Shown: positions 35,236-52,114 of the stretch, in pieces
Layout of the letters: every line of letters starts with the position of its first letter
How positions within the stretch are numbered: the first letter of the stretch is position 1
NCBI GenBank assembly: GCA_963847445.1
Contig: CAWJZV010000048.1
Coordinates: 192,001 to 256,000, forward strand
Length of the DNA: 64,000 nt
Direction of reading: 5' to 3'
Origin: an uncultured delta proteobacterium
GTDB taxonomy: Bacteria > Desulfobacterota > Binatia > UBA9968
Made by a program: the position numbers and the translations under genes
The notes under the pieces: model-generated
Seen by the model: the letters and a program-made list of their open reading frames with translations, nothing else
The model's database searches: none
Told to the model about the DNA's origin: nothing

Positions 35236-35616
35236 TCCGCCTCCTTCGAACCGTGGCGATCTTAGAACGGACAATGCCTCGGCACAACCGTTCAATGTCT
35301 CAATCGAGCATGGTGAGTATCACTCGCGACTAGGCGAAGTGAAGATCCGTCAGGCCGGCGCGGACCGGCATCGCACGCATCATCCATCTGGATACCGTTT
35401 TCCAACGGTATGCCGGACGCTGTCGGCCACTTGGGTTCCGGCTTCCGCCGGAATGACGGATGGGGAAACGACTTCGAGTCGGAAGATTAACAATCCCTCT
35501 GTTTGGAGCGAAGCGTTGTTCAACTCCATACTTTCGCGCAGCGGGTTGTTTGTATATAGTTACGCCATCGATCCGGACCGTGCGCCGAAAAGCAAAACCA
35601 TCGGAGGACAATTTCC

Positions 35617-36900
35617 ATGTCGAAACCTTATCTAAATCGCACTGTCCTCGCGGCCAGCCTCGCCGTGGTTTGGTCCTGCGCAACGGCGACCGACAGTCCG
35701 CCGCAGCGCTACGCCGCCGGCACCGGCCCGGCCGACCAACTTCAGTTGCCCGCGCCATTCGACACGCCGTCGGTGCGCAACCAATCGAAAGTGATCGGCT
35801 GGCCCCAAGGCAGAACGCCCACGGCCGCGCCGGGCTTCGAAGTCAGCCTGTTCGCCGACAAACTCGCCAATCCGCGTCAGACCTATGTGCTGCCAAACAA
35901 AGACGTCCTCGTGGTGGAAAGCATTCGCGAGTGGCCCGGCCGCGCCGATCGGCCGGAAAAGTCGGCCAATCGCATCACGCTGTTCCGCGACACCGACAAC
36001 GACGGCAAGCCCGACTTGCGGGAAACCTTTCTCACGGATTTGAACATGCCCGAAGGCATGCTGCTGCTCGGCAATTGGTTCTATGTCGGCAACACCGACG
36101 CCGTGGTTCGCTATCCCTATCGCGCCGGACAGACGAAGATCGACGGCAAAGGCGAAAAGATTATCGATCTGCCGGCCGGCGGCCATCACACCCGCACGCT
36201 CAGCGCCGATCCGGCGGGCAAGAAAATTTACGTCGCCATCGGCTCCGCCTCCAACGTCGACGAAGAAAACGCTTGGGAAAAAGATCAACGGCGCGCCGGT
36301 ATTATCGAAATCAATCCCGACGGCAGCGGCATGCGGATATTCGCCAGAGGTCTGCGCAATCCCGTCGGCATGGACTGGGAACCGAGAACCAAGACTCTCT
36401 GGACCGTCGTCAATGAACGCGATTTACTCGGCGACGATCTCGTGCCGGACTATCTCACCAGCGTGAAAGACGGCGCGTTTTACGGCTGGCCCTACTCGTA
36501 CTTTGGCCCGATCGAAGACCCGCGCAAGAAAGGCCAACGCCCCGACCTCGTCGCCAAAGCGATCAAACCCGACTACGCCTTGGGCTCGCACACCGCGTCA
36601 CTCGGCTTGGCATTCTACAACGGCAAAGCATTTCCTCAACGCTATCAAGGCGGCGCGTTCATCGGCATGCACGGCTCGTGGAACCGCTCCAAGATGGTCG
36701 GCTACAAAGTCGCGTTCGTGCCGTTCGCCAACGGCAAACCCGCCGGACCCATCGAAGACATCCTCACCGGCTTCATCGCCGACGAGAGCAAGTTCGAAGC
36801 CTACGGCCGGCCGGTCGGCGTCACCGTCTTACCTGACGGCTCGCTGCTCGTCGCCGACGACAGCGGCGGCAAAGTCTGGCGCGTCACGGCAAAGAAATAA
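35617..36900 (+). CDS. PQQ-dependent sugar / sorbosone dehydrogenase family lipoprotein (beta-propeller)
   Basis: GLRNPVG, LWTVVNERD, FYGWPYSY, HGSWNRS and GRPVGV. Confidence 0.9.
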   Translation: MSKPYLNRTVLAASLAVVWSCATATDSPPQRYAAGTGPADQLQLPAPFDTPSVRNQSKVIGWPQGRTPTAAPGFEVSLFADKLANPRQTYVLPNKDVLVVESIREWPGRADRPEKSANRITLFRDTDNDGKPDLRETFLTDLNMPEGMLLLGNWFYVGNTDAVVRYPYRAGQTKIDGKGEKIIDLPAGGHHTRTLSADPAGKKIYVAIGSASNVDEENAWEKDQRRAGIIEINPDGSGMRIFARGLRNPVGMDWEPRTKTLWTVVNERDLLGDDLVPDYLTSVKDGAFYGWPYSYFGPIEDPRKKGQRPDLVAKAIKPDYALGSHTASLGLAFYNGKAFPQRYQGGAFIGMHGSWNRSKMVGYKVAFVPFANGKPAGPIEDILTGFIADESKFEAYGRPVGVTVLPDGSLLVADDSGGKVWRVTAKK

Positions 36901-36919
36901 CCAACGAGAAGAAGATGTT

Positions 36920-37130
36920 ACAACACAGAGCGCACGGAGATCACAGAGCAAGTGCCGGTCGCGAGCAGCCCCGTTGGAAATCGAATAATTTACCGCAGAG
37001 TACGCGAAGGGCGCAAAGTTCCGAGCTCTTTGTAGCGTATGGCATACGCCCTTCCTCACAGCGAAGGATGAACTTTGGTTTCACCGCGAAGGGCACCAAG
37101 GTTCGGATAATTTGAAATCCGACCTTCGTG
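36920..37130. repeat. Cluster of degenerate nonamer repeat arms (CACAGAG / CGCGAAG families)
   Basis: cacagagcgcacggagatcacagag; ccgcagagtacgcgaagggcgcaaag; ggttcggataattt..tccgaccttcgtg, which matches 59457-59487. Confidence 0.55.
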
Positions 37131-37571
37131 ACCAACGTCAAAGCTGGCGCGCTCTACGGCTGGCCCTATTCGTATTTCGGCCAGAACGAAGATCCACGCA
37201 AAAAAGGCCAACGCCCCGACCTGGTCGCCAAACCGATCAATCCGGACTTCGCCCTAGGCGTCCATACCGCGCCGCTGCGGCTGGCATTCTACAACGGTAA
37301 ATCCTTCCCGCGCGCTACCAGGGCGGCGCCTTCGTCGGCCTGCATGGATGATGGAATAGATCGAGATTGGTCGGTTACAAGGTTGTTTTTGTGTCTTTCG
37401 CCAACGGTAAGCCAAGCGGCGCCATGGAAGACTTCCTCATCGGCTTCTTGCCCAACCCAAAAGCCTACGAAGTCCACGGCCGCCCGGTCGGCGTCGCCGT
37501 CTGGACCGACGGCTCGCTGCTCGTCCGCGACGACGGCAGCAATAAAGGCTGGCGTCAGCGTGAAGAAATAG
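37128..37571 (+). pseudogene. Degenerate partial duplicate of the C-terminal third of the upstream dehydrogenase
   Basis: YGWPYSYFGQNEDPRKKGQRPDLVAK vs YGWPYSYFGPIEDPRKKGQRPDLVAK; no start or RBS; frameshifts. Confidence 0.85.
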
Positions 37572-37687
37572 GCAGCGGGCAAGAGTCAACAGCTTGACGA
37601 AAATCCGGCAAAGTTCGAACTTTAAACTTCGTCATATTCCTTTCACGACTCGTTTCGTGGTCCAGAAGTTCATAGAATCCTGCTATC

Positions 37688-37770
37688 GTCATGCCGGCGA
37701 ATGCCGGCATCCATCTTCATCTTCGGTTCGCCGGCGATAAATCTGGATTCCGGCTGCGCGGGAATGACGG
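37688..37770. repeat. GTCAT-CCGGC...GGAATGAC REP-like doublet (partial copy at about 35350-35460)
   Basis: gtcatgccggcgaatgccggcatcca ... tggattccggctgcgcgggaatgac. Confidence 0.6.
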
Positions 37771-37874
37771 AAAAGGCTTTGCGGTTTTTGCCCGCAATCT
37801 TGAGACAACTCACTAGCGGCAGCAACCGCGATTCAACGATCTTCCCACCACTCCACTACTCCAACACTGCTTGC

Positions 37875-38609
37875 TCACGTCCTGCCCACTTCCAACAACT
37901 GCCCGGAGACATAATCGGAGTCGCTGGTGGCAAAAAACAGAAACGCCGGCGCGATCGCTTCCGGCGGCACCAACTCCCGTTCGCGCCGGGCGATGCCCAA
38001 CTGTTCGCGGCGGAACTTGGTCAGCTCCTCGGTCATGCGCGTGTCGGCCGCCGGCGAGATGCAGTTGACCTGGATGTTGTGCGACTTGAGTTCGTTGGCG
38101 GCATTTTTGGTCAAGGCGATGATACCGCCCTTGGCCGCCGCATAGTCGGCGACGCCGTAGGAGCCGCGCAATGCCGAAGGCGCGGCGAGATTGATGATCT
38201 TGCCTTTCTGCTGTTGCTTCATGATCGGGATCACCGCTTGGGTGCAATTGAACGTGCCCTTCAAGTGCACGCCCAAGGTCTCGTCCCAGCGTTCTTCGGT
38301 GATATTTTCCAGCGGTGCTAGTCGGAGAATGCCGGCGTTATTCACCAGCACATCGATACGCCCCCACTTGGCGAGCATCGTTTGCACCAGCTTGTCGATG
38401 TCGCCGCGGCGCGTCACGTCGGCGAGCATGGAGATACAATCGCCACCCAGCGCGGTGATATCCCGCTCGGCTCTTTCCAGCGTATCGCGATCCTGCACCG
38501 CCGTGATCGCCACCCGTGCCCCCTCCCTTGCAAACCTCAGCGCCACTGCCCGGCCGATGCCGCGGCTACCGCCGGTGACGATCGCCACTTGTCCGTCGAG
38601 TCTACCCAT
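37875..38609 (-). CDS. Short-chain dehydrogenase/reductase (FabG-like)
   Basis: TGGSRGIG, NNAG, YAAAK and VNCISP. Confidence 0.9.
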   Translation of the reverse strand: MGRLDGQVAIVTGGSRGIGRAVALRFAREGARVAITAVQDRDTLERAERDITALGGDCISMLADVTRRGDIDKLVQTMLAKWGRIDVLVNNAGILRLAPLENITEERWDETLGVHLKGTFNCTQAVIPIMKQQQKGKIINLAAPSALRGSYGVADYAAAKGGIIALTKNAANELKSHNIQVNCISPAADTRMTEELTKFRREQLGIARRERELVPPEAIAPAFLFFATSDSDYVSGQLLEVGRT

Positions 38610-38719
38610 AAGAATATTGCGCACTCCTTTGCTGCTGGTGAAATTAGTCTAGAAGACGACAATTGCGCAAGCTCAGCGAGTTTGGTACGAAGCGCCATCG
38701 GATTGCATGAGGTGTCTTT

Positions 38720-39706
38720 ATGCCGCGACCCTGCGCATTAGCTATGACGATAGTCCTGTTAAGCGCGCTGTTCTTAGCGCCGGCCTCGGCGCAAATGAAA
38801 GTGCGGCTAAACTGGTCGGCCATCGCCGCCGGCCAGAGCGGCATCTGGATCGCCCATGACGAGGGACTTTTCAAGAAAAACGGCCTCGACGTCGAGCTGC
38901 TGCATATTCCGTCGAGCTCCCTGATCATTCAAACTATTCTTGCCGGCGAGGTTGCGATTTCCTATGTCGACGGGCGCAACACGATTCAGTCCAACCTAAC
39001 CGGTTCCGATATGGTGCTCATCGCCGGCGTGACCAATCGCTTTCCCTTCACTTTCATGGCGCGCCCGGAATTCAAGCGCGTCAGTGAATTGCGCGGCAAA
39101 CGCATCGGCGTCACCCGCGTCGGCTCCTCGACCCACACCGTGACGCTCTACGTGCTCAACCAGGCCGGACTCAAACCGGGCGACTACGAAATAGTTCCTT
39201 TGGGTGAAGTGCCGAATATCTTGATCGCCCTCGCCGCCGGCAGGATCGACGCCGGCCCGCTGTCGTCGCCAACGACCATCCGCGGGCGCAAGGCCGGCTT
39301 AGTCGAACTCGCGACTCCGGCGAAAGACGGTCCGGAATATGTTTCCATCGCCGTCGGCGCCACCCGCGCCTACATTCGCAGCAATCCGGAAATCGTCCGC
39401 CGCTTCATGCGCGCCTACGCCGAAGCCGTGCATCTTTTCAAATCCAACAAACCGATAGCGCTAAAAACATTGCAAAAATACACCCGCGTCACCGACCTGG
39501 AGATCCTCGAAGAAACCCATAAAGAATATCGCGAGTTGATCGAATCGGTCCCCTACCCGAGTCGCCGCGGCATCGAAACCATCCTCGCCGAGTTGGCCGC
39601 CAGCGATCCCAAAGCGCGCCAAGCCAAGCCGGATGATTTCGTCGACCGGCGATTCGTCGCGGAGCTAGAGCGAGACGGGTTCTTCAAGAAGCTGGGAGCA
39701 AAGTAG
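38720..39706 (+). CDS. ABC transporter substrate-binding protein (SsuA/THI5-like)
   Basis: ATG CCG CGA CCC reads on the + strand at 38720, so the '-' label in the ORF track is wrong; WIAHDEGLFKKNGLDVE and ELRGKRIGV. Confidence 0.9.
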   Translation: MPRPCALAMTIVLLSALFLAPASAQMKVRLNWSAIAAGQSGIWIAHDEGLFKKNGLDVELLHIPSSSLIIQTILAGEVAISYVDGRNTIQSNLTGSDMVLIAGVTNRFPFTFMARPEFKRVSELRGKRIGVTRVGSSTHTVTLYVLNQAGLKPGDYEIVPLGEVPNILIALAAGRIDAGPLSSPTTIRGRKAGLVELATPAKDGPEYVSIAVGATRAYIRSNPEIVRRFMRAYAEAVHLFKSNKPIALKTLQKYTRVTDLEILEETHKEYRELIESVPYPSRRGIETILAELAASDPKARQAKPDDFVDRRFVAELERDGFFKKLGAK

Positions 39707-39773
39707 TTAAACCGGCAACATATAAATGCCCGTCCCCAGCCCTGGGGGAAGCAAGACGGCGCCGCCTGGTAGC

Positions 39774-40859
39774 TTAGATGAGCTTTTTCTCAAGCAGGAA
39801 TCTGTAGATTACTTGCGCAACGAGACTATGTCCCTTTTCATTCCAATGAATGTCTACCGGAAAATAGAATGCTTCTCCGCGCAATCCTCGCGCTTTTAAC
39901 GTTGGAGTTAAATCGAGGCACAAAAGATTGCGCGCGCCGCAATACGCCGCAATTGTTTTATTGAGTCGGTTAACGCGTTCTTTAAAGACGTCAGTCGACT
40001 TTATTCGTTCCTTGGCGAGTTCCCAATACACTTCTTCTTTTTGTGGGAAGTAAAGCAGGATGAAGGTTGCGTTAGTGCGTTTGCTCTCTTGGTAAGCATC
40101 TTCAATCTGCCTTGCTATGCCAGCCCAGGCTGACGCAAATTCTTGATCTGCAATTGCGTACGGATCGCGCAACCGTCGATCCAGCAGCTTGAGACCGATC
40201 GTGTGTCGCCGGTCATTTGTCCCGCCTTTGTTAAGGGAGCGGAAGACGGTGTTAAAAATATTGTAGCTGGCCGAGTAACGCGCCATGAATCCTTTTGCGG
40301 TCATCCGTTGTTTGCGATTGACCGGCGGCGCTTCAAAACGTACCCCATCCCTCAGGTCATTGGAGAACAGCGCATAGAAAACAACCTTGGGACGCAACCG
40401 CACTCCATATTTTTGCAAAACTCGCGTGTACTGATGCGGGCCATGGCCGGGCACGCCAAAATTTATGATCTCGCGATTTGTCAGTCGCGCCAGCTGCGCC
40501 ACCCACGTCGCCTCTTGGTCAACGCCTGCGCCAAATGTGAACGAATCTCCAAAGGCGGCTCCCCAAGCAGGGCCGCCTAAGGTTCCGCCGCGAAACCCTG
40601 CGCTGGGAAAATTCAATCGGGTTTGTATCCGGAAGCTGAACTCCTCGCCGGGGAAATAGTAATCAGTTTGGGGCCGGATCATATTGCCAATTGGCGGATC
40701 CTTGACGTAGTAGGTGTCTCCTTCCATCAGAACAACCAGATTTCGCAATGGGCCGGGCAAGAGATGACTCGGCAAAAGATAGACGGTAAGATCGAAAGCG
40801 CCCAAGGTAAACAAGGTGCTCAACAGCACGAGCGCCGTTTTAGCGAGAAAGCTTTTCAC
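39774..40859 (-). CDS. Membrane-anchored SGNH/GDSL hydrolase-like (AlgJ/AlgX-like) protein
   Basis: FGDSFTFG, INFGVPG, FSND and DIHWNEKGH. Confidence 0.85.
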   Translation of the reverse strand: MKSFLAKTALVLLSTLFTLGAFDLTVYLLPSHLLPGPLRNLVVLMEGDTYYVKDPPIGNMIRPQTDYYFPGEEFSFRIQTRLNFPSAGFRGGTLGGPAWGAAFGDSFTFGAGVDQEATWVAQLARLTNREIINFGVPGHGPHQYTRVLQKYGVRLRPKVVFYALFSNDLRDGVRFEAPPVNRKQRMTAKGFMARYSASYNIFNTVFRSLNKGGTNDRRHTIGLKLLDRRLRDPYAIADQEFASAWAGIARQIEDAYQESKRTNATFILLYFPQKEEVYWELAKERIKSTDVFKERVNRLNKTIAAYCGARNLLCLDLTPTLKARGLRGEAFYFPVDIHWNEKGHSLVAQVIYRFLLEKKLI

Positions 40860-41460
40860 GATTTCTTTACTTTGAAACTAAGACTTAATGCGAGAAATAC
40901 GGTGTCAACGCCGCAGCGAAATGTCCTAGCTGACGCCAGCGGTAATATGGCCACCGCAGCCAACCCGAAACACAAGAGAAATCGTCGCTAGGAAGAGCAT
41001 CCAAATCTGCCGATGCATATTCAATAATCATATACGCGAGAATTTTATGGCGCAAGCATTTCGTCGTTGGCCGCAGCTCCATCGCGGCGCATCTTGCATC
41101 CCGCTATTTCTTATATAGCCGGTCGAAATCTCCGATATCATCGAGCTCGTTGATAAAACGCAGAACGGCAAAATCTTCGGCCTTCGCTCCGTTGGCTCTC
41201 AGGTCTCGCCATGATCGTATTCAATCCCTCCGAGGTCGCGCTTGATACATCGCCGGCGGCGCCAGCACGGTGGTCTGCACGCGTTGGTTTCCATGGCGTG
41301 CGGTCGCCCCTCTCAGAGAGCAGACACAGGGATTTGCCCTTTGACGATGCGTTGAATCCAGAGTGGACCACTGCCGGTATCCCTTTCCGCTTGACTGCGC
41401 ATACCCATTCCCTGTTAAAGTAGCCGTAACAGCACAGCAGGAGGAGGTTCCCCGGCAACT

Positions 41461-41862
41461 ATGGCTATACCTGGAGAAAAAGCGATTCAGATGGTGCGCA
41501 ATGCGCATACCCAAGCGGCGCAGTTGGACATTGCCGTGACTGCGGTGGTGGTCGACCAGAGTGGTCGCATGATCGCGCTCGGGCGCATGGACAAAGCGCG
41601 GCCGATCACGGTAGAGATCGCCCTTAACAAAGGTTACACTGCGGCGAGCTTCCAGCAGCAGACCAAAGACTTGGCCGGCGTGGCCAACCAAGCCTGGTTT
41701 CAAAGTCTGGTGGTGTCGAGCAGCGGCAAAGTAATGCCGGGTGGCGGCGCCATACCGGTGGTCGAAGGCGGCAACGTCGTCGGCGCCATCGCAGTCTCGG
41801 GCGGCACCGACGATCAAGATCAAAAATGCGCCGAAGTGGCGCTGGCGGCTTATCAAGGATGA
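41461..41862 (+). CDS. GlcG/HbpS (DUF336) heme/cobalamin-binding family protein
   Basis: AVVVDQSG, RMD, IALNKGYTAA, GGAIPV and VGAIAVSGGTDDQD; RBS AGGAGG. Confidence 0.9.
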   Translation: MAIPGEKAIQMVRNAHTQAAQLDIAVTAVVVDQSGRMIALGRMDKARPITVEIALNKGYTAASFQQQTKDLAGVANQAWFQSLVVSSSGKVMPGGGAIPVVEGGNVVGAIAVSGGTDDQDQKCAEVALAAYQG

Positions 41863-41963
41863 AGTGACAGTGATGCGAGACAGAGACCGCCCCGGCGCTT
41901 TCTTAACTTTCTTTCTCTGTCTCTATCTCATGGCTCTGTCTGACTAAACCCGGAGGGCAAACG

Positions 41964-43277
41964 ATGTCCAAAGTTGAAACTCCCAACCCAAACAACGGCA
42001 ACGGTAGCGGCGAGTTCCCGACGCCCTATCTCGGCCGCACCGTGCGCATCGTCGGCAAGTTTGAAAACGTCGACATGAATCAGTCGCCGCACCCGAAAAA
42101 TCAGCGCGGCGAACTGGGCAAGCCGTTGTTCAATTGGTATCACAACACGGTGTCCAAAGATCCACTGACCAGGGTATCGGCGCCAAACCATTTCGCCGAC
42201 CGCAGACATTTCTTGAGCACGGTGGTCAACCAGGCGGCCAAGGGCAAAATCAATCCGCAGAAAGTTCCGGTGAACGATCCCGCCGCCATGGCGCGCCATA
42301 TCAAAGCGGTAGCGCACTACATGGGCGCGGATATCGTCCGCATCGCCAAGGCCCATCCAAATTATCTTTATGCTGCCGGCGGCGGCCGCTATGTCCAAGA
42401 CGGCACGGCCAAGGACGATTACGCATCCCACACGCCGGAGCAGATGGCGCGCAAATTTCCCTACATCATCATGGCGACCACCGCGTGGGACTACAACAAA
42501 CTGCAAGCGCACCGCCATCTGATCGGCGACGCCGCCTATCACATCTCGCAAATCAAGGGCAACATGATCCTGAAAGCCCTTGAAGGTTACATCAAAGAAC
42601 TCGGCTACACGGCGCTGCGCGGCGTGGCGGTGCCCCAAGCGGTGGGCGTTGCCTCCGGCGTCGGCGAGTTAGGCCGTAACGGGCTGGTCATCAGCAAGGA
42701 ATACGGCGCCCGCGTGCATATGCCCGACCCGATCATGACCGATCTGCCGCTCGTGGGTGACGAGCCAATCGACATCGGCGTCGACGATTTCTGCAAAGTC
42801 TGCCGCAAGTGCGCCAACACCTGCCCGACCAATAGCATTCCAGTGGGCGACAAGGTCGTCCACAACGGCGTCGAGAAATACAAGATCAACTGGCTCACCT
42901 GCTACAAGCTGCGCCCCTACGTGCACGATCACTGGGGCAGCTGCCTGACCTGCGCCACGGTCTGTCCCTACACCAAGCCGAAAACCTGGTGGCACAACCT
43001 GGCGACTTCGTCATTGCACTATTGCCCCTACGTCCTGCGCCCGGTGCTGGTGAAGTTTCTCAAATGGGTCGATGACCGATTCTGGGGTTTGGTGCGTAAC
43101 GCGCGGGTGACTTGGCTGGGCTACGATTCCGGCGTCAAACCCGGCGAGCATGCCTGCACTGTCGCCGGCTGCAACGCGTCGCATGAGAAAGCCGGCGCCA
43201 AAGCGGTCGCCGGCAGCGTCGGCTACTATGCGCCGCTCAAGGAAAACACCAATCGATTCGTCAAGCGGGAACCGTAA
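41964..43277 (+). CDS. Reductive dehalogenase-like (RdhA/QueG superfamily) cobalamin and 2x4Fe-4S protein, without a Tat signal
   Basis: IKAVAHYMGADIV, YIKELGY, SGVGELGRNG, TDLPL, FCKVCRKCANTCP and C-X11-CLTCATVCP; ORF intact. Confidence 0.85.
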   Translation: MSKVETPNPNNGNGSGEFPTPYLGRTVRIVGKFENVDMNQSPHPKNQRGELGKPLFNWYHNTVSKDPLTRVSAPNHFADRRHFLSTVVNQAAKGKINPQKVPVNDPAAMARHIKAVAHYMGADIVRIAKAHPNYLYAAGGGRYVQDGTAKDDYASHTPEQMARKFPYIIMATTAWDYNKLQAHRHLIGDAAYHISQIKGNMILKALEGYIKELGYTALRGVAVPQAVGVASGVGELGRNGLVISKEYGARVHMPDPIMTDLPLVGDEPIDIGVDDFCKVCRKCANTCPTNSIPVGDKVVHNGVEKYKINWLTCYKLRPYVHDHWGSCLTCATVCPYTKPKTWWHNLATSSLHYCPYVLRPVLVKFLKWVDDRFWGLVRNARVTWLGYDSGVKPGEHACTVAGCNASHEKAGAKAVAGSVGYYAPLKENTNRFVKREP

Positions 43278-43870
43278 GTGGCTTTGAAGTTTCCCTGGTC
43301 CGGCAAGGACTCCCACAAGGACGATCCCTTCTGGGAGTTTTTCATCAATACGCCGCCCGCCGATCTCACTAATACGGTGACGGAACTGATCCGCAATGCA
43401 CCGGCGGGGAATATTTTCCCCAATAAAGCCGAGCTGCACACGCCCGAGATCACCTCCAGTCATGTCAAAGGCATGGCGCAGTACTTCGGCACGGAGCTGA
43501 TCGGCATCGCCAAGCTTGATGATCGTTCCCCTCGCCCGATGCGCCAGCGGGCAAGGACGAGGACAACGAATTTCCGTTCGCCATCCTGTGCGCCGTCCAT
43601 GCCGACTACGACCCGCGCCAAGCCAAAGGCATCGGCGGCCAGATGCCGGTGCAAAACGGCTTGTTCATCACTTTTGTCTTGAGTTCATGGATTCGCGAAT
43701 TGGGCTTTCGCGCCACAGTGGTGCGCGACGCCAACGTCGACGCGCTGGCGGCCAAAGCAGGCTTGGGAACGTTGAATGGCAATGGCCGGCTGGTCAGCCG
43801 CGAATTCGGCGCCCAGGTTTACGTCGCCGATGCGATCTACACCGATCTGCCGCTAGCCGCGGACGGCTAG
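43278..43870 (+). CDS. RdhA-core paralogue lacking the Fe-S domain (about 197 aa; frameshift near 43550)
   Basis: HVKGMAQYFGTELIGIA, WIRELGF and AGLGTLNGNG..SREFGAQV..TDLPLAADG*; stops where the ferredoxin domain would begin. Confidence 0.75.
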
Positions 43871-43981
43871 GCCTTCGGCCATTCCAGATTACAAATTTCA
43901 GATTTTCAAATTGCCGATCCGAACTCTGGAATATGTAATTTGGAATCTGGAATTAGATATTTCGAGCGAAGCGAGGACCCC

Positions 43982-44645
43982 GTGCCCTACATCATCACCG
44001 AACTTTGTACCAATGACGGCGCCTGCGTCGAAGTTTGTCCGGTAGCTTGCATCCACACTAAACCGGGCGCGCCGCAATTCTACGTCGACCCGGAAGTCTG
44101 CATCGACTGCGAGCAGTGCGAGATCGTCTGCCCGGTGGACGCGATATTCAAAGACGTGGATATTCCCGCCCAATACGCCTACGCCATCGAAGTGAACGCG
44201 GCATTCTTCCGGCAGAACAAAGCGGCCATCGGCCCGGTGCCCTTCGCTACCGCCTGGGCTATGATCGAGTCCGCCCAAGAGTACGCCAGCCTGGTCGGCA
44301 GCGCGATCACCGCCGTGGTGGTCGACGAGGCCGGCGCACCCATAGCGGTCGGCAAGATGGACAAGGCCGAAGCGAGAAGCGCCGAGTTGGCGTTCAACAA
44401 GGCCTACACCGCCGCCGCGTTTCACGTCTCAACTACTGAATTGGTGCCGCAAGCGCGCCAGGCCTGGCTACGCAGCCTGATGATTTCGCACCGCGGCAAG
44501 ATTTTGCCCATGGCCGGCGCCCTGCCGATCGTCAACGGCGTCACCATCGTCGGCGCCATCGGCATCGCCGGCGCCAGCCGTCCGGAACAAGATCGCCCTG
44601 TGCTGCCGCGCCGGCATGTCAGTGTGGGAAAACCACGGCCATTGA
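43982..44645 (+). CDS. FdxA-like ferredoxin fused to a GlcG/HbpS domain (frameshift near 3' end)
   Basis: PYIITELCTNDGACVEVCPVACI...CIDCEQCEIVCPVDAI, then AVVVDEAG, LAFNKAYTAA and VGAIGIAG in the same frame. Confidence 0.85.
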
Positions 44646-44708
44646 TAAACACTGCCGCGTTGATTTCGTAGGGGCAACTAGACGTTGCCCAGGGCAGGTT
44701 AAAAGACC

Positions 44709-45884
44709 ATGCCGCAAACCATCGACCAGAAATCGCTTTTCTCCGAAACCAATCTATTTAGCCAAGGCGTGCAGGCAGGTGAATTCACATTCCTCGCCCA
44801 AGATGGGCGCGGCCCGGATGGCACCGTCAGAGCAGCACTGTCCGCCGAACAAGAAGTACGCCAATGTCTTGTCAATCTCGACATGGGGCTGCGCGCATGC
44901 GGCCAATCATCGGCTGACTTGATAAGTCTCGCGGTATATCTTTCCGACTACGGCGATGCTGCCGCCGTGGCCAAGACGTTGCGGGATCGCTTCGGCAACG
45001 ATGCCCCAGCCGTAAATTTCGTCGGCGTCAACGGCCTCGACGGCGGCTGCCGCGTGCGTATGGATGCCATCGCCACCAGCAGCGAAGATCGCGAAACGTT
45101 GCACATCGCGGATCTGCCGCTGTCCATCGGCGCCGGTTGTCATGGCGTGCGCGTCGGCGCTTGGTTTTTTCTCTCTGGCACAGACGCCGCAAAAGGCGAC
45201 GGCCGTATCGCCACGCCGTCGTCGATTCAAAGCCAAACCACCGAAGTCCTCACGCGCATTGGCAAGATTCTCGCCAGACATAAACTCGGCCTCGGCAATC
45301 TCTGCCGCACCTTCATGTTCATGCCAGGCACCCAGCACCGTCCCGGCTACGGCGAGGCGCGCAAGAAAGTTTACCAAGGCGTATTCACCGAGGATGCTTA
45401 CCCGCCCAACTCCGGCATCTACATCCGCAGCCTCGGCGAAAACATTCTGCTGCGCTCCATGGCCATCGCCTACCGCGGCGAGCAGAGAATCGTAACAAGT
45501 CCCAAAGTGCGCCTGGCGCCCGGCTCATTTTCACAATCGGTGCGGGTTGGTAATTGGCTACTGCTCGCGGGCCAAGATGCCGTAACGTTCGACCGGGTGG
45601 TGGAATGTGAAGGCAGCCTCGCCGGCCAAACCGAAGCGACACTGCGCCACACCAAAGACATCGTCGAAGCCGCCGGCGGCACTCTCGACGACATCGTCAA
45701 GACCACTGTGTATTTGGTTGAAGGATCTAGTCGCGCAGAATTCACCGAAGCGTATCGCAGGTTCTTCGCCGCCCACAGCCGCAACAGCACCATGCCCGCT
45801 GGCTTAACCGTGGTCGTCGAAGAGCTATCGCCGCGCTGCTCCGTAGAGATCGATTCGGTAGCTTACTTGCCAACCCGAAATTAA
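44709..45884 (+). CDS. Protein of three tandem Rid/YjgF domains
   Basis: Three repeats: FSQGVQAGEFTFLA / CHGVRVGAWFFLSG / FSQSVRVGNWLLLAGQ; ends VEIDSVAY. Confidence 0.85.
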   Translation: MPQTIDQKSLFSETNLFSQGVQAGEFTFLAQDGRGPDGTVRAALSAEQEVRQCLVNLDMGLRACGQSSADLISLAVYLSDYGDAAAVAKTLRDRFGNDAPAVNFVGVNGLDGGCRVRMDAIATSSEDRETLHIADLPLSIGAGCHGVRVGAWFFLSGTDAAKGDGRIATPSSIQSQTTEVLTRIGKILARHKLGLGNLCRTFMFMPGTQHRPGYGEARKKVYQGVFTEDAYPPNSGIYIRSLGENILLRSMAIAYRGEQRIVTSPKVRLAPGSFSQSVRVGNWLLLAGQDAVTFDRVVECEGSLAGQTEATLRHTKDIVEAAGGTLDDIVKTTVYLVEGSSRAEFTEAYRRFFAAHSRNSTMPAGLTVVVEELSPRCSVEIDSVAYLPTRN

Positions 45885-45903
45885 TCGGCGGCTAAAATAA
45901 CGG

Positions 45904-46275
45904 TTAGTCCAGCAGGATTAGAAATAGACCGACGATCACAACCACCGCGGCAAAGGAGGCGATCGCCGCCGCCGCCGGACCGAGGGGAAAAACGAACACA
46001 ACCAGGATGGTGCCGGCGCATAGCGCAATGAAGGCAGCGATGATCGCCTTCACCCACATCTCACCGGTAAGAACCCTGTCCGGCCGCAATTTACTTACCG
46101 TGCCGAGCCAATCTATCGGTAGCGATCCCGTTTGCTCAACCGCGCCGGCGCCTGGGTTGGCCGCTTGGGCTTTGCGCCGCTTCACCGCCCAGTGCCGCAA
46201 TAGCATCCAGACCATTAGTGCCAGCAGCACAACAAGAACCACTGAATACGATATTACCGCCTGCTCTAGACTCAT
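45904..46275 (-). CDS. Hypothetical membrane protein (3 TM)
   Basis: Three long hydrophobic segments; no family recognised. Confidence 0.55.
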   Translation of the reverse strand: MSLEQAVISYSVVLVVLLALMVWMLLRHWAVKRRKAQAANPGAGAVEQTGSLPIDWLGTVSKLRPDRVLTGEMWVKAIIAAFIALCAGTILVVFVFPLGPAAAAIASFAAVVVIVGLFLILLD

Positions 46276-46458
46276 CGCGCTTGATCCATCTTCACAGAGT
46301 AGGTTCTGTGACCGTTTCCCTCACTGCGAATATTAAACGATCTGAACCCCAGTGTTCCAACGCCGGTGGCGGGATTTTGCCCTTTTGAGTTCATTTAACG
46401 ACAACGATTGTCAGCCTTGCCACCGACGGTTGAGCGCGCGAGCCAAGAACCTTGCCGC

Positions 46459-47466
46459 CTACTTAACTTCCCCTGGAAATAGCTTGGACGCATGGTCGCG
46501 GTTCACCGCCTGAATAAACGAGTTGTCGTAGAAGCGTTTCGGATCGGCGCCCTTGCCTCGACCGTCCGGCGCATCGTCAAGCACGACCCGGATCGCCGCT
46601 GGATCGACGGTCAGATCCTTGTTCCAAACGCGCAACCCTTGCTGGTAATTATCCGCGAGGATTTTGGCGTCGGTGACTTTGGAGTATTTGGATTCGAGCT
46701 TGCTGGCATACTCTTCGTCGTCGATGGCGCGTTTCACGCCATCCAACAGTCCCATCAAAAATGCCCTGATGGTGTTGGGATTTTTTTGCGCGAACTCGCG
46801 CGTCACCGCGGTGCCAGGGCCGATGATTTTCAATCCTTCTTTGTAAAAATCGACGATCACCGGATAGCCTTTTTGCTTGGCCATGTCGGATTGCGGCGGC
46901 GTGTTGATCATGGCGTCAGAGTTGCCCAGTGTAAACGTCGAAAACGCCTGCGCGGGTGTACCGTGAAACATCAACTTGATGTCCTTGGGAATCTCCATCC
47001 CGTACTTCCGTGCCGTCCCGCGCATGGCGATCTCGCCGAAAGCGCCGGGCGAGGTCGTCGCCACCGTCTTGCCGCGCAAGGCATCGAAGCTGGTGACGCC
47101 TTTCTGGCCGAATAGCATGAGCGAACTCTTGTCGACGCCGGCGGCGACATAAATAATATCCGCACCGGCGAGCGTCGCCATCATCGCCGCCGACCCGCCC
47201 TGGTAAATATCGATCTTGTTGGAGATCAATCCCTGCACCGCGACAGCGGCGCTGACCGCGGAAATGTTAACGCTCAATCCATATTTATTGAAGTACCCCG
47301 CCTCATGGGCGATCAAAAGCGGCATCGTCGTATGGGCGAACGCAGCCACGGCGATATCGAGACTCTTCTTTTCCGGTTTGCCCGTCTGCGCACCGGCATT
47401 GGCAATTAAAAAGGCCAGCAGCGCCGACCCCCAGACAATTCCCCGAAGTGAAAACCTCATTACCAT
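46459..47466 (-). CDS. ABC transporter substrate-binding protein (SsuA/THI5-like)
   Basis: LIAHEAGYFNKYGL, LRGKTVAT and FYDNSFI. Confidence 0.9.
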   Translation of the reverse strand: MVMRFSLRGIVWGSALLAFLIANAGAQTGKPEKKSLDIAVAAFAHTTMPLLIAHEAGYFNKYGLSVNISAVSAAVAVQGLISNKIDIYQGGSAAMMATLAGADIIYVAAGVDKSSLMLFGQKGVTSFDALRGKTVATTSPGAFGEIAMRGTARKYGMEIPKDIKLMFHGTPAQAFSTFTLGNSDAMINTPPQSDMAKQKGYPVIVDFYKEGLKIIGPGTAVTREFAQKNPNTIRAFLMGLLDGVKRAIDDEEYASKLESKYSKVTDAKILADNYQQGLRVWNKDLTVDPAAIRVVLDDAPDGRGKGADPKRFYDNSFIQAVNRDHASKLFPGEVK

Positions 47467-47559
47467 AAACCGTTCAACCTCCTGACTCCTGAGTCCTGAC
47501 TTCTACTCCTCACCCCTCACCCTTACTTTTTGGTTGCGGCTTGGTCATTTCGCTTCGGC

Positions 47560-48142
47560 CAATACCTGCCGCAACAGGGTAAAATCGATGACATCATCCG
47601 CCTTCACTTCTTTCCCCGTGGTCTGTTTGATCAAGCCGAGTTGGTTTTTAATCGCGCTATCCTTGCCCAAGCGAAAGAACCCGACGGGCCAGCATCGGTG
47701 CTGGGCTTCGCTCAATAACAAGGATGACCAACTCTATAAGATCAGCCGTGAATTATTCAAATCGCAAGCGGTGGTTTTTTTCGTCTCCGTTCGATGGGGG
47801 CAAACGAACAGCGTATATCAGCGCCTCTTCGAACGCATTAGCTGGATCGAGAACAGAGTTACCTCACTTGGAGAAAAGCCGATACCTCAGCTTAAGAAGC
47901 TTGAAGCGGGCATCGTCCTGTTCGGTCACAACTGGAACGACGAACAAGTTCTGAAGACTCAGCAGCAGAACTTCGAATGGTTCGGCTGGAAAACACCCGA
48001 GGCGCTTAGCTTCAACTGGCAATACACCGAAGATGCGGATGAGGAATCTCCCGAGTCCTACCGTGATGCGGTATCAGAATTCGGTGTTCTGCTACAGTTG
48101 GCGCTCCCACACAAGGCTGCATCCGTTAAGGTCCCCCGATAA
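47560..48142 (+). pseudogene. 5'-degraded flavodoxin-fold / NADPH-dependent FMN reductase-like gene
   Basis: HRCWASLNNKDDQLYKI, AVVFFVSVRWG and YQRLFERISWIEN; no credible start, scrambled N-terminus. Confidence 0.55.
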
Positions 48143-48367
48143 CCCCCCCTTTTGTTTTGCTTGACGCTATTCCTTCGGATCTGCCATCGATCAACAAGCC
48201 CAAAATTCAAGCGCTGCCAAACGCTCCATCGCCCAAGACAACACCGGGATTGTCATCAAACAGAAACTCGATTGACAACTTTCTAGTCCGGCGATATTGC
48301 TCGCGTCAGAAAAAAGGTGCTTGAATTGTCCTATACAGAAACACCTGACTGAATTGCGCGACGTACG

Positions 48368-49156
48368 ATGGGCGACATGACAACGAGTCCCTATCCACCG
48401 TTCGACGGGGTCGAGCCCTACGGCACCGTCCGTTCGGTTGCCGACGAACGGGCGCACCGCAAGCGGATGTGTGCGCTCGGATACCGCATCTTCGGCGCGA
48501 TGCGGTGGGGAATGCTCGGCGACGGTCATATTTCGGCCCGTGACCCCGAGTTCACCGATCACTTCTGGCTGCTCGACTGGGGTGTCCCCTTCAGCGCGGC
48601 GACGGTCCACCAGTTGGTGCTGGTGGGGCCCGGTGGCGAGGTGAAGGATGCCGACGGCAACGCGACCGGTGCCGTCAACACGGCCGGCTACAACATCCAC
48701 CATCCGCTGCTCGCTGCCCGTCCCGACGTCGTCAGCGCATCTCACACCCACACAGCCTTCGGCACGCCATGGTCGGCCAACGTCGAGCCGTTCCGCGCCC
48801 TCAGTCAGGAGGCCTGTGCCTTCGTGTTCGACCAGGCCCTTTTCAACGATGAGGAGGTGGAAGTGCTTTCGATCGATGGCGGCAGTCGCATAGCCGCAGC
48901 ACTCGGCAACAAGAAGTTCTGCATCCTGCGCAACCACGGCCTGCTCACGGTCGGCCGGTCGGTGGAGGAATCGGTTGGCTGGTTCGTGATGGCCGAGCGG
49001 GTGGCCGAGGTCCACGTGAAAGCGCCAAATGGGCGATCGATCTCTGACGAGGCCACTGCCGCTGCGGCGTCGACACTTGCCCTTGACGCCGTCGGATGGC
49101 GGATGTTCCAGTGGCTCCAGCGGTCGCTTGTTGCCGATCGATCGGTGGTCGACTGA
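48368..49156 (+). CDS. Class II aldolase/adducin family protein
   Basis: GHISARDP, IHHPL..ARPDV, SHTHT and LRNHGLLTVG. Confidence 0.9.
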   Translation: MGDMTTSPYPPFDGVEPYGTVRSVADERAHRKRMCALGYRIFGAMRWGMLGDGHISARDPEFTDHFWLLDWGVPFSAATVHQLVLVGPGGEVKDADGNATGAVNTAGYNIHHPLLAARPDVVSASHTHTAFGTPWSANVEPFRALSQEACAFVFDQALFNDEEVEVLSIDGGSRIAAALGNKKFCILRNHGLLTVGRSVEESVGWFVMAERVAEVHVKAPNGRSISDEATAAAASTLALDAVGWRMFQWLQRSLVADRSVVD

Positions 49157-49402
49157 ACAGCGCGGCCCGCCAGCTGCACAGGCGTCACACCGGGAGCGGC
49201 TCGCGGTGACTAAGTCTGCAGCGTGGAACCTCTATGTCTGCTTGCTGAGAGTCTACAAGTGTGCTGGACTAAGTGTGCTGGGTCGGACCAAGGCAATCTG
49301 TTGATTTAACAACACAAGGTTGCTTAAAAGGCATCGTTTAACAGCTTAGAGGTGGCTTTTTACACCGATAAAGCGACCTCCAAGAAAAACGCTGCCGCGC
49401 GC

Positions 49403-49661
49403 CAACGCTGAACAACTGCGGCCGGTTTTAAACGTTCCACCGCTACGCTCAGTTCAAGTGGTTCCAATCGTCAGCAGATGATTTAGGAAACGGAAACTTA
49501 CTTCTGGCGATCTGCTTCTATCTCTGAGGACTATCTTGCTGCGCGAACCGTCCGACACTTGTGCTGGCAAATTCACTGGCAAGAACGGCGCTCTGAGGAC
49601 ACCAAACATCATTCTCTGGGATGAAAGCTTCGAAGATGCGAGGACATAGGCTGGTCCGACC
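49403..49661. repeat. Copy 1 of a modular intergenic unit
   Basis: 49403-49522 is a near-identical direct repeat of 52189-52305; 49522-49549 and 49616-49661 match 54189-54216 and 54249-54294. Confidence 0.8.
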
Positions 49662-49878
49662 CCGTAAAGCACAGTAAACCACATGTTCGGACTTGGTAGC
49701 ACACTGCGTCCGCGTGGCCGGCCGCGGAATGAGCGAAAAAGCAGCCTGTCCCCGTTTTAGATCCCTTTTTAGATCATCCTTTTTGCTAAACCGGCGCTTA
49801 AAGGTTTTCCTTGTGATGCCGATTTAACGGAGGAATCGGCATCGCGACTACACCACCGACGAGCATCAGGAGCGTCAA

Positions 49879-50877
49879 ATGCAGGAAATTCCCATCAAAA
49901 ATATCATGAGCACGGAGGTTCGATGCGCTTCGCTGTCGACGCCTCTTTCACAGGTCATCCAGTCGATGAAACGACGCCATCAGTCGTGTGCGGTCATTAC
50001 CGAGAACGGTCGGCCCGTAGGAATAGTCACTGAACGCGATATTGTTCGCCAGGTGACAGAGCTGATCGACAAAGGTAGAGGGTACGATCCGGCGGTGAGT
50101 TCAGTCATGTCTGCGCCGCCGATCACGATTCATGAGAACGCGACTTTTTTCGAAGCTCTGGTGGTCGCCAAATCCAACCGAATCCGCCACATACCGGTCA
50201 TCGACAGCCGCGGTGAATTGGCCGGTATCGTCACCTATAGCGATCTGGTCGCAGCTCATTTCCAGGTCATCAATCGCTACACGGAGATTCTTGAACGGGA
50301 GGTTGCCTCCCGCACCGAGCAATTGACTGAGGCAAACGAGAAACTTCGGGAACTCTCTTTGGAGGATGGTCTACTCAAGATCGGCAACCGACGGTCCATG
50401 GAGGTCGACCTCAATCACACCCATTCTGCCGCGGTGCGCTACCGCCGTTCCTATGCTGTCATTCTATTCGATGTCGACTATTTTAAGCTTTACAACGATC
50501 ACTACGGCCACGCGGGGGGCGACCGAGTATTGCAGCAAATCAGCGGCTATCTAAAAGACGCCGTTCGGAAATCGGATCGCGTCTATCGCTATGGGGGAGA
50601 GGAAATACTGGTGTTGCTGCCGGAAACTTCACAAGACCATGCTCACACTGTGGCACGACGACTTGTTGAGGGGATTGCGAATTGCTGTATTCCACACGAG
50701 GCACACCCACTGAAAGTCCTAACGGTCAGTGGCGGCGTCAGTTTGTCGGACGAGACAGACGGCGAGGAATGGAACCGCGTGGTGCAGCGCGCCGACAGCG
50801 CCCTATACCAGGCAAAACATCGTGGGCGAAACCGGATTGTAGTCTTTGAATTCGACTCACCCCTGGCCACAAACTAG
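49879..50877 (+). CDS. Diguanylate cyclase with an N-terminal CBS pair
   Basis: GIVTERD and GIVTYSD (CBS); DVDYFKLYNDHYGH, RKSD I-site and RYGGEEI. Confidence 0.92.
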   Translation: MQEIPIKNIMSTEVRCASLSTPLSQVIQSMKRRHQSCAVITENGRPVGIVTERDIVRQVTELIDKGRGYDPAVSSVMSAPPITIHENATFFEALVVAKSNRIRHIPVIDSRGELAGIVTYSDLVAAHFQVINRYTEILEREVASRTEQLTEANEKLRELSLEDGLLKIGNRRSMEVDLNHTHSAAVRYRRSYAVILFDVDYFKLYNDHYGHAGGDRVLQQISGYLKDAVRKSDRVYRYGGEEILVLLPETSQDHAHTVARRLVEGIANCCIPHEAHPLKVLTVSGGVSLSDETDGEEWNRVVQRADSALYQAKHRGRNRIVVFEFDSPLATN

Positions 50878-51067
50878 ATTGCACACAGCAACTTGAGAAT
50901 CAGGCCTTGAAACTTGCAAGTGTGGAATCTTTCTGCCTGCTTGCTATTGAACCCAAAAGTTTCTGAGCGCAAAACAGAGTGACCCGAGACACTGTATTTG
51001 CCGATCTTTATGTAGCTGATAGGATGCGGCGAGCCAATTTTGTCGATCATGGCGGCTGCGGCCGCCA

Positions 51068-52114
51068 TTGAAAGGATCCCTGATGGTTTTGGTCCGCCAA
51101 CTCGACCGGCATGTCGCCGCCCGAACATTTGTCACCGCCGTTTTCACATTGCTGGCCGTCGCTTTGCCATTATTTTCCTGCCAGGCCGCGGCGGCGCCCA
51201 CTAAAATCGTCATCAGCTACGCGATCCTGAGCGAGCGCGAGGGCGTGCTCATGGTCGCCCGCGATCAGGGCTTTTTCGCCAGGCAGGGACTCGATGTCGA
51301 GTTGGTTTACATGCCGAGCGCGCCAATTTCCCTGGCAGCCATGGCCCGCGGCGACTCCCAGGTCAACACCGGTTCAGCCTCGGGGGCCATCCTCGGTGCC
51401 ATGGCCGGCGGACTGGATCTGGTTTTCGTCGCCGGGCTGGTCAATAAACTAACCGGCGTCATCGTCACCGGGCCGAGTATCAACAGCCCGGCCGATCTCA
51501 AGGGCAAGACCATCGGCGTGACCAGCATCGGCGGCGGCAACTGGGTGTTTACCATGCTCGCGCTCGAACATTGGAAGCTCGATGTCAAACGCGACAATAT
51601 AACCATCCGCGTCATCGGCAACGACTCGGTGCGCGCCCAGGCGATCACCAACGGCACCATCGACGCGACCCAGCTTTCCGCCTACTCGTTGGTGACGCCG
51701 TTGAAGCGCCAGGGGGCTCGGGTGCTGGCCGACCTGCCGGATCTGGGGGTGCCCTACCAGGGGGTGACGGTTTTTACCCGGCGCAGCTATCTCAATCAAA
51801 ACCCTGATACGGTGGAAAAACTGTTGACCGCGATCGTCGAAGCCATCGCCTTTATCCAGGACCCGGCGAATAAAGCCGCGGTGTTGCGCAGCTTGTCCAA
51901 AGGGCTGCGCCTGGCCAAACCCGAAGACAGCGCCGAGGGATACGAAAGCGTCAAGCCGCTGTTCGAACGGAAGATTTATCCGACGGTCGAGGGCGTGCGC
52001 AATACGATTCGACTGCTCGGCATGAGCAACGAAAAGATTCGCAATCTGCGGCCCGAAGAGATCATCGACGATCGCATCGTCCGGCGCTTGGAGCAGAAGG
52101 GGTTGTTTCGTTAG
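51068..52114 (+). CDS. ABC transporter substrate-binding protein (SsuA/THI5-like)
   Basis: VARDQGFFARQGLDVE, DLKGKTIGV and IIDDRIV. Confidence 0.9.
   Translation: MKGSLMVLVRQLDRHVAARTFVTAVFTLLAVALPLFSCQAAAAPTKIVISYAILSEREGVLMVARDQGFFARQGLDVELVYMPSAPISLAAMARGDSQVNTGSASGAILGAMAGGLDLVFVAGLVNKLTGVIVTGPSINSPADLKGKTIGVTSIGGGNWVFTMLALEHWKLDVKRDNITIRVIGNDSVRAQAITNGTIDATQLSAYSLVTPLKRQGARVLADLPDLGVPYQGVTVFTRRSYLNQNPDTVEKLLTAIVEAIAFIQDPANKAAVLRSLSKGLRLAKPEDSAEGYESVKPLFERKIYPTVEGVRNTIRLLGMSNEKIRNLRPEEIIDDRIVRRLEQKGLFR

Follow-up and report, generated by a model that had tools for sequence, protein, structure and literature searches.

The 64,000-nucleotide stretch of DNA analysed here, referred to below as the window, belongs to the metagenome-assembled genome (MAG) of an uncultured member of the Binatia. 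This MAG is designated G000 and is 91.8% complete; other G-numbers denote related genomes, and L-numbers denote loci. Positions 41461-45884 of the window carry five genes (g1 to g5), delimited by the open reading frame (ORF) listing and family scans, which are all encoded on the plus strand. The second encodes a protein of the reductive dehalogenase (RdhA) superfamily and is accompanied by a second, cluster-less RdhA core, two GlcG domains, a ferredoxin and a triple Rid protein. An earlier note, made from the sequence alone, had described five co-oriented genes here, and all five are present. Two of them, g3 and g4, contain frame breaks in this assembly that the note had not recognised. The features of the locus are:

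41461-41862, plus strand: g1, stand-alone GlcG/HbpS-like (DUF336) protein of 133 amino acids (aa) (PF03928, E = 8.9e-28)
41964-43277, plus strand: g2, RdhA-like core plus two-[4Fe-4S] domain, lacking a twin-arginine translocation (Tat) signal, 437 aa (TIGR02486, structure model)
42549-42551, plus strand: Gln196 codon of g2, aligned with the Tyr that is catalytic in dehalogenases (NpRdhA Y426; alignment columns, HMMER)
42717-42719, plus strand: His252 codon of g2 (YGARVH), at the position of the PceA GPNVR Arg and NpRdhA K488 (alignments including 4uqu and 4ras)
42792-42968, plus strand: the two Fe-S motifs of g2 (C277-C287-P; C313, C327-C334-P; 93-sequence alignment)
43278-43540, plus strand: g3 piece 1, frame 0, N-terminal part of an Fe-S-less RdhA core (three-frame translation)
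43541, plus strand: 1-nt deletion interrupting the g3 frame, within a length-variable linker (DNA alignment against relatives)
43542-43870, plus strand: g3 piece 2, frame 2, ending in TDLPLAADG (TIGR02486, 35.6 bits on this piece)
43982-44671, plus strand: g4, fusion of a 7Fe-type ferredoxin and a GlcG/HbpS-like domain (Fer4, PF03928; frame shifted near 44593)
44709-45884, plus strand: g5, 391-aa protein made up of three Rid (YjgF/L-PSP) domains (three PF01042 stretches)

The RdhA-like protein g2 and its active site

To place g2, the hidden Markov model (HMM) searches proposed in the earlier note were carried out together with structure prediction. The protein scored 156.5 bits with the reductive dehalogenase (RDH) model TIGR02486, just under its cut-off of 160.35, and 58 bits with the QueG model TIGR00276, for which the cut-off is 200. 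In a phmmer search against solved structures, PceA (1.3e-26) and NpRdhA (2.5e-25) were matched, with no more than 25% identity to any solved dehalogenase. The structure model of g2 (pLDDT 82.6, pTM 0.84) superimposed on residues 269-637 of NpRdhA (4ras_B) with a Z-score of 34.2 and a root-mean-square deviation (rmsd) of 2.7 Å over 344 residues, and also matched PceA (4uqu; Z ∼30), QueG (Z 14.9) and MMACHC (Z 7.2). By these scores and identities, g2 does not group with QueG or with a solved dehalogenase, an outcome that the earlier note had named as part of what would refute its reading.

An alignment of 93 sequences was used to examine the cofactor motifs. The eight cluster cysteines of g2 are C277, C280, C283, C287, C313, C327, C330 and C334, the first five of which are invariant in all 93 sequences, while the last three are present in at least 90%. 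Likewise, G232, G234, R238, G248 and T259 are invariant in 93/93 sequences and E235 is found in at least 90%. Judged by these columns, the cofactor scaffold (the cysteines and the core glycine/arginine motifs) is retained in g2. The sequence features neither an RR motif nor a hydrophobic N-terminus, and the family scan identified no C-terminal reductase or phthalate dioxygenase reductase (PDOR) domain. The description of g2 as a Tat-less RdhA-like protein with both Fe-S motifs and no reductase fusion was therefore borne out.

The active site differs from that of known dehalogenases. HMMER alignments placed Gln196 of g2 opposite Y426 of NpRdhA, and His252 opposite both K488 of NpRdhA and the Arg of the PceA GPNVR motif (4uqu, 4ras); S422 of NpRdhA corresponds to His185 and R552 to Arg317. 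In PceA numbering, we take Y246 to be the counterpart of NpRdhA Y426. In the columns of the 93-sequence alignment, Gln196 is present in 28/28 orthologues, whereas Tyr occupies this position in 60 of the 63 generic representatives; His252 is equally constant (28/28), against Arg or Lys in 59 of those 63. The earlier note had pointed to His as the basic residue in YGARVH and to altered chemistry; this replacement, along with that of Tyr by Gln196, extends throughout the orthologues. Other clade-invariant switches are Met to Trp175, Pro to Arg184, Ala to Glu207, Asp to Ala230, Trp to Tyr306 and Trp to Arg317, which in sequence terms amount to a more polar pocket. In one NpRdhA study, Y426 and K488 are described as a catalytic dyad and a K488Q variant as inactive, while S422, K488 and R552 are reported to bind the substrate hydroxyl (PMC7565698). 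As Tyr and Lys/Arg are exchanged for Gln and His across the clade and the pocket is more polar, the substrate is probably not a classical organohalide.

A search of 1.84 billion representatives returned 2091 matches to g2 at E ≤ 1e-3, of which 60 reach E ≤ 1e-30. The clade to which g2 itself belongs comprises a few clusters, with a best full-length match of 54% identity, and beyond it lie a paralogue clade (∼41% identity) and then generic RdhA-like proteins (32-36%). In a FastTree phylogeny of the 93 sequences, for which the support values are local only, a branch with support of 96 parts the 28 orthologues and two paralogues from the 63 generic representatives, which form the Tyr/Arg-bearing side. 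The nearest Atlas cluster is mostly from Chloroflexota, which we regard as a lead only.

Further RdhA-like genes were encountered. Members of a second clade (L030-L033), ∼40% identical to g2, also lack the catalytic Tyr and are each followed by a plain ferredoxin in place of g3 and g4; G275 holds six copies of these ∼40%-identity paralogues and other relatives hold several per genome. A third RDH-like gene of G000 (C16:40547-41453; L077:1314-2220, minus strand) gave a partial match to TIGR02486 of 107 bits. A frameshift immediately ahead of its second Fe-S motif interrupts this gene; in relatives the frame there is intact, at ∼300-330 aa.

Partner proteins encoded with g2

The GTG start codon of g3 directly abuts the g2 stop codon. 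Piece 1 of g3 is 96% identical to the copy in G003, and intact g3 is a single open frame of 171-205 aa in 38 distinct orthologous sequences, with 48 invariant columns. Its terminal TDLPLAADG corresponds precisely to the point at which g2 passes into its Fe-S domain. A model of the intact G003 protein (pLDDT 75.5) superimposed on the N-terminal domain of NpRdhA (4ras_B, residues 55-220) with a Z-score of 14.2 and an rmsd of 3.0 Å over 139 residues, and on residues 39-220 or 42-220 of other NpRdhA entries. It also matched the cores of PceA (Z 13) and QueG (Z 12.8), as well as CblD (MMADHC; Z 8.8). The earlier identification of g3 as an Fe-S-less paralogue of the RdhA core is thus upheld, albeit with a coding frame that is split locally. 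According to PMC10463259, catabolic RdhA proteins contain a vestigial core duplication that is unable to bind cobalamin and that mimics the dimer interface of the respiratory RdhA PceA. Since the g2 model corresponds to residues 269-637 of NpRdhA and the g3 model to its N-terminal vestigial core, g2 and g3 together recreate the two halves of NpRdhA, but as products of two genes and with the order inverted. By analogy, we infer that g2 and g3 bind each other.

Both GlcG domains are clear members of PF03928 (97.3 bits for g1 and 83 bits for g4, against a cut-off of 25), as had been noted earlier. The best solved relatives of g1 are 2a2l, NahX (9jth), PduO-C (5cx7) and EfgA (6bws), and HbpS is also related. 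The expected ferredoxin-GlcG fusion was found in g4, although with a different start and a frameshifted 3′ end: translation most likely begins at the GTG at 43982, which lies behind a GAGGA sequence, rather than at 43940. The ferredoxin half matched 7Fe ferredoxins best among solved structures (1bc6, 4.9e-19, and 2v2k), and reached the threshold of Pfam Fer4, while the NCBIfam FdxA equivalogs remained below cut-off (68 versus 125 bits). Fusions of the g4 type form 806 clusters at E ≤ 1e-10, and the best 120 of these 806 are almost all 220-221 aa long. With regard to function, PMC4923194 describes PduO-C as a heme-binding domain needed for efficient 1,2-propanediol use, which also occurs fused to an adenosyltransferase, and gives a Kd of 34 µM for the binding of aquocobalamin by HbpS. 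On this analogy, the GlcG domains of g1 and g4 may act in tetrapyrrole binding or electron transfer. G000 carries eight PF03928 genes in all (contigs C4, C9, C22, C30 and C46), including a tandem pair at C46:260363-261229.

The three Rid domains reported previously for g5 were recovered as three PF01042 stretches. The active-site Arg of RidA imine deaminases is R105 in Escherichia coli. In domain 3 of g5, a Gly aligns to the Arg of the PAR motif of PH0854, and at the matching place domains 1 and 2 feature PAV and PPN, respectively (aligned by eye). Due to these replacements, g5 is unlikely to be a canonical imine deaminase. The triple-Rid family consists of 521 clusters of ∼390 aa. A small ORF with three hydrophobic segments (45904-46275, minus strand) converges on g5 and matches no Pfam or NCBIfam family. 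The absence of a small hydrophobic rdhB, which the earlier note had remarked on, therefore stands for the co-oriented genes, although this hydrophobic, family-less ORF does lie downstream on the opposite strand.

Conservation, neighbourhood and integrity of the cassette

Orthologues of g2 (E ≤ 1e-200, 74-98% identity) were found in 27 of 60 sampled relatives: 25 in the family of the window (f1), both genomes of genus g8 in family f2, and 0/19 in family f3. Across 16 orthologous loci, g1-g2-g3 is present in 16/16 and g4 in 15/16, with one g4 copy cut by a contig end and the gene absent within 4.5 kb in G029. A second set of 26 loci longer than 12 kb, which overlaps the first, gave comparable figures (g1 26/26, g2 26/26 and g4 25/26). 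In contrast, the triple Rid gene follows the cassette in only 6/16 and 5/26 loci of these overlapping sets, and the small ORF downstream of g5 was present in 5/26 loci, the same number as for the triple Rid. The conserved unit is therefore g1-g4, and not the five genes that had been proposed, with g5 as a variable appendix; the search of other genomes that the earlier note had proposed otherwise showed a conserved neighbourhood, and a dedicated ferredoxin, that of g4, forms part of the conserved cassette.

Within the phylum, to which this search was confined, no g2 orthologue was detected at E ≤ 1e-60 in 200 other sampled genomes. The NCBI labels of L047, L067, L073 and L074 (Acidiferrales, Binatia, Binatia and Udaeobacter, respectively) conflict with their GTDB placement. 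As the genomes concerned, G061 (Acidiferrales label), G062 (Udaeobacter) and G037 and G041 (Binatia), fall among the window's own GTDB relatives, these data show no spread across phyla.

Analysis of the neighbours of the 26 loci revealed no further tightly linked gene. A UbiD-family (prenylated FMN-type) decarboxylase gene (33793-35295, minus strand) lies 6 kb upstream and recurs within 10 kb in 9/26 loci, which is a possible, weak hint to aromatic acids. Genes for NMT1/THI5-like periplasmic binding proteins surround the cassette (38720-39706, 46459-47466 and 51068-52114); such proteins occur in 11-13 of the 26 loci, and paralogues adjoin the ∼40%-identity RdhA-like genes in L030-L033. No ferredoxin reductase was identified among the eleven flanking ORFs scanned (33793-52114). 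In RNA libraries from three studies, contigs were found that match parts of g1, g2 and g4 at 95-98% identity, and the g2/g3 junction is covered by two of these contigs.

The frame breaks in g3 and g4 were examined by comparison with relatives. Three-frame translation showed that the first ∼83 codons of g3 (43278 to ∼43540) are read in frame 0 and the remainder in frame 2, up to the stop at 43870. DNA alignment with three congeners, including G003 and G014, attributed this to a 1-nt deletion at 43541, inside a linker of strain-variable length. In g4, one extra base (a T) near 44593 puts the last ∼25 residues out of frame. An intact g4 would end ...CCRAGMSVWENHGH with a stop codon at 44643-44645; the protein is 220 aa in relatives, and 218-221 aa in 33 distinct orthologues. 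Neither lesion was present in any relative or public contig examined. DNA contigs from three public runs (X1, X2 and X3) that cross 44593-44595 have one base fewer there, one of which differs at just one further position in 187 nt, and a contig from X8 has one gap somewhere within 43939-44633.

These breaks are somewhat more likely to be errors of the consensus than real lesions. Every piece of the broken genes is 93-96% identical to G003, and the g3 pieces contain no stops in their own frames. Both sites are also places where close strains differ (the g3 linker and a cluster of single-nucleotide polymorphisms at 44596-44600), which is where mixed-strain consensus errors would be expected. A conserved block of ∼2.1 kb in G000 (C4:86125-88300) and in L036, L038 and L039 is interrupted by frame breaks at differing positions in all four MAGs, which suggests that indel errors occur in these assemblies. 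No public run matched more than 0.46 of the sampled words, and the public contigs compared here come from relatives. A decaying pseudo-operon in G000, in which the g3 and g4 frameshifts are real and recent mutations, is a substantial possibility that we do not favour. It would fit with the restriction of both indels to this assembly, and with the fact that they are the only coding indels not divisible by three relative to G003 in 6.2 kb of aligned sequence: g1, g2, g5 and two neighbouring genes have no coding indel against G003, and rpoB and rpoC of G000 (8 kb) feature no frame break. The third RDH-like gene, on C16, is likewise frame-broken.

Proposed function and alternatives

We propose, with a probability of roughly 0.55, that the cassette, a conserved operon of soil bacteria, encodes a split cytoplasmic corrinoid/Fe-S reductase of the RdhA superfamily that has its own ferredoxin and probably acts on a non-halogen substrate. 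The cytoplasmic RdhA-like system anticipated by the earlier note is consistent with the data, given the lack of a Tat signal, of a co-oriented rdhB and of a reductase fusion. In the proposed mechanism, g2 would be the catalytic subunit, with a predicted base-off corrinoid and two [4Fe-4S] clusters. The cluster-less core copy, g3, would dock on g2 in the manner of the vestigial N-terminal domain within NpRdhA, and electrons would likely be delivered by the ferredoxin of g4. Both g1 and the GlcG half of g4 may bind a tetrapyrrole, either heme or a corrinoid, while the substrate would be a polar compound that is probably not a classical organohalide. G000 does use corrinoids, as seen from its CobS and six B12-binding domains.

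The closest known systems are the catabolic dehalogenases NpRdhA (Nitratireductor pacificus; 4RAS, 6ZXU-6ZY1), BhbA and JtRdhA, which are cytoplasmic and lack a Tat signal, like g2. The likeness to NpRdhA comprises the core plus two-[4Fe-4S] fold, the vestigial core, which is matched by g3, and the retention of R552 as R317. Truncated catabolic RdhA proteins also have a ferredoxin encoded nearby, as reported in PMC10463259. In contrast to NpRdhA, with which g2 shares 24-25% identity, the vestigial core is encoded here by a separate gene after the catalytic gene instead of an N-terminal fusion, Y426, K488 and S422 are replaced by Gln, His and His185, a PDOR domain is lacking, ferredoxin and GlcG are joined in one protein, and a second GlcG gene leads the operon. 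The respiratory RdhA/RdhB systems (PceA of Sulfurospirillum multivorans, 4UQU; RDH complex, 8Q4H) belong to the same superfamily and fold (Z ∼30-32) and have the Fe-S motifs and core glycine/arginine motifs in common with g2, but the cassette lacks Tat, a co-oriented RdhB and the Tyr/Arg pair, and no homodimer would be expected. g1 and the C-terminal half of g4 belong with GlcG, HbpS and PduO-C (DUF336, PF03928), but we found no description of a member of this family beside an RdhA-type enzyme or fused into its electron path.

Several observations weigh against our proposal. Tyr192 and His193, positioned a single helical turn ahead of Gln196, could serve as substitute proton donors, so that dehalogenase chemistry may persist, and the equivalent of NpRdhA R552 is retained. 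At the family level, the RDH score of g2 is under the curated cut-off, and PF13486 gave no match at E ≤ 0.01 in the Pfam scan. The GlcG family also includes proteins with an unrelated role, such as EfgA, which is reported to be a formaldehyde sensor (PMC8153426). The RNA-library contigs come from relatives and may reflect DNA carry-over, and as g3 and g4 are frame-broken in the window, the local copy of the cassette may be inactive.

Alternatively, the enzyme could be a true reductive dehalogenase of the catabolic type that acts on halogenated phenolic or aromatic acids, with a proton relay of Tyr192, His193 and His252 replacing the usual Tyr-Lys/Arg dyad. The closest structures are of the catabolic enzyme NpRdhA (Z 34), the hydroxyl-binding Arg is conserved as R317, and a vestigial core accompanies g2, a trait of catabolic RdhA proteins; the UbiD-type aromatic decarboxylase gene 6 kb upstream (9/26 loci) and the multicopy occurrence of the ∼40%-identity paralogues, with six in G275, are in keeping with it, the latter being a pattern typical of catabolic families. 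We nevertheless consider this unlikely, because the counterparts of Y426 and K488 are Gln and His in 28/28 orthologues, g2 is below the RDH model cut-off, the pocket residues Met/Pro/Ala/Trp/Trp have become Trp/Arg/Glu/Tyr/Arg, and K488Q is reported to abolish NpRdhA activity (PMC7565698). The loss of the substrate-protonating dyad could instead mean that the corrinoid is the substrate and not the cofactor, making the system a bacterial counterpart of CblC/CblD (MMACHC/MMADHC) that reduces or strips cobalamins and hands them on via the GlcG domains. MMACHC and MMADHC, which are matched by the g2 and g3 models, respectively (Z 7.2 and 8.8), likewise combine an active core of this ancient fold with a paralogue that has degenerated; the aquocobalamin binding of HbpS and the adenosyltransferase fusion of PduO-C, as given in PMC4923194, point the same way. 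However, Z-scores of 7-9 are within the range of a shared common fold, the likeness is at the level of fold only (8-12% identity), and the MMACHC/MMADHC pair lacks an Fe-S domain and processes the cofactor rather than using it in catalysis.

Genomic context speaks against cobalamin trafficking as well. An Rfam scan of the whole window returned no family at gathering score, cobalamin riboswitches included, and the region upstream of g1 gave only a chance small nucleolar RNA match (E = 4.2). There are no adjacent B12 genes, and a housekeeping trafficking system would hardly be expected to go undetected in the 200 additional genomes sampled from the phylum. We regard this explanation as improbable; the cassette would then be no dehalogenase but a corrinoid-handling machine, in which the RdhA-derived core, its degenerate partner, the ferredoxin and the two GlcG domains act together. 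In a milder form, it would be a new class of B12-dependent reductase for a polar non-halogen metabolite. Finally, g2 could take the place of QueG as an epoxyqueuosine reductase of non-canonical type. QueG (5D08, 5D6S) is a cytoplasmic enzyme of the same superfamily with B12 and two [4Fe-4S] clusters that reduces a non-halogen substrate, and G000 encodes QueA over cut-off with neither QueG over cut-off nor QueH. This replacement was rejected, and we hold it to be very improbable, since canonical QueG exceeds the cut-off in 52/61 relatives, including the cassette carriers G003, G004, G014, G021, G037 and G041. Furthermore, the QueG model score of g2 is only 58 bits against a cut-off of 200 and its structural match to QueG is far below that to NpRdhA (Z 14.9 versus 34). 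The missing QueG is probably attributable to the 91.8% completeness of the MAG.

No paper pairing a reductive dehalogenase with GlcG or DUF336 was found in a literature search that did not extend to supplements, and nothing on this cassette was found in literature on HbpS and catabolic RdhA. Among the matches listed for Binatota, Binatia or Desulfobacterota_B, reductive dehalogenases were not mentioned. The view that the gene set comes from no described pathway is in agreement with these searches, and the cassette is a real and conserved, though apparently unstudied, version of an RdhA-superfamily system, in which the active site has been remodelled and the partners are unusual.

To our knowledge, every RdhA-branch enzyme characterised so far is a dehalogenase, and a different substrate is known within the superfamily for QueG alone. 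A conserved clade in which both catalytic residues are exchanged, and whose partners accompany no other member, points towards an additional type of B12/Fe-S reaction. According to PMC10463259, in vitro reconstitution of the electron pathway that serves NpRdhA did not succeed, and a natural split of the catabolic dehalogenase architecture could show the purpose of the vestigial core and the electron route of the soluble enzymes. The system would also anchor the DUF336/GlcG family, about which little is understood, in a defined biochemical setting.

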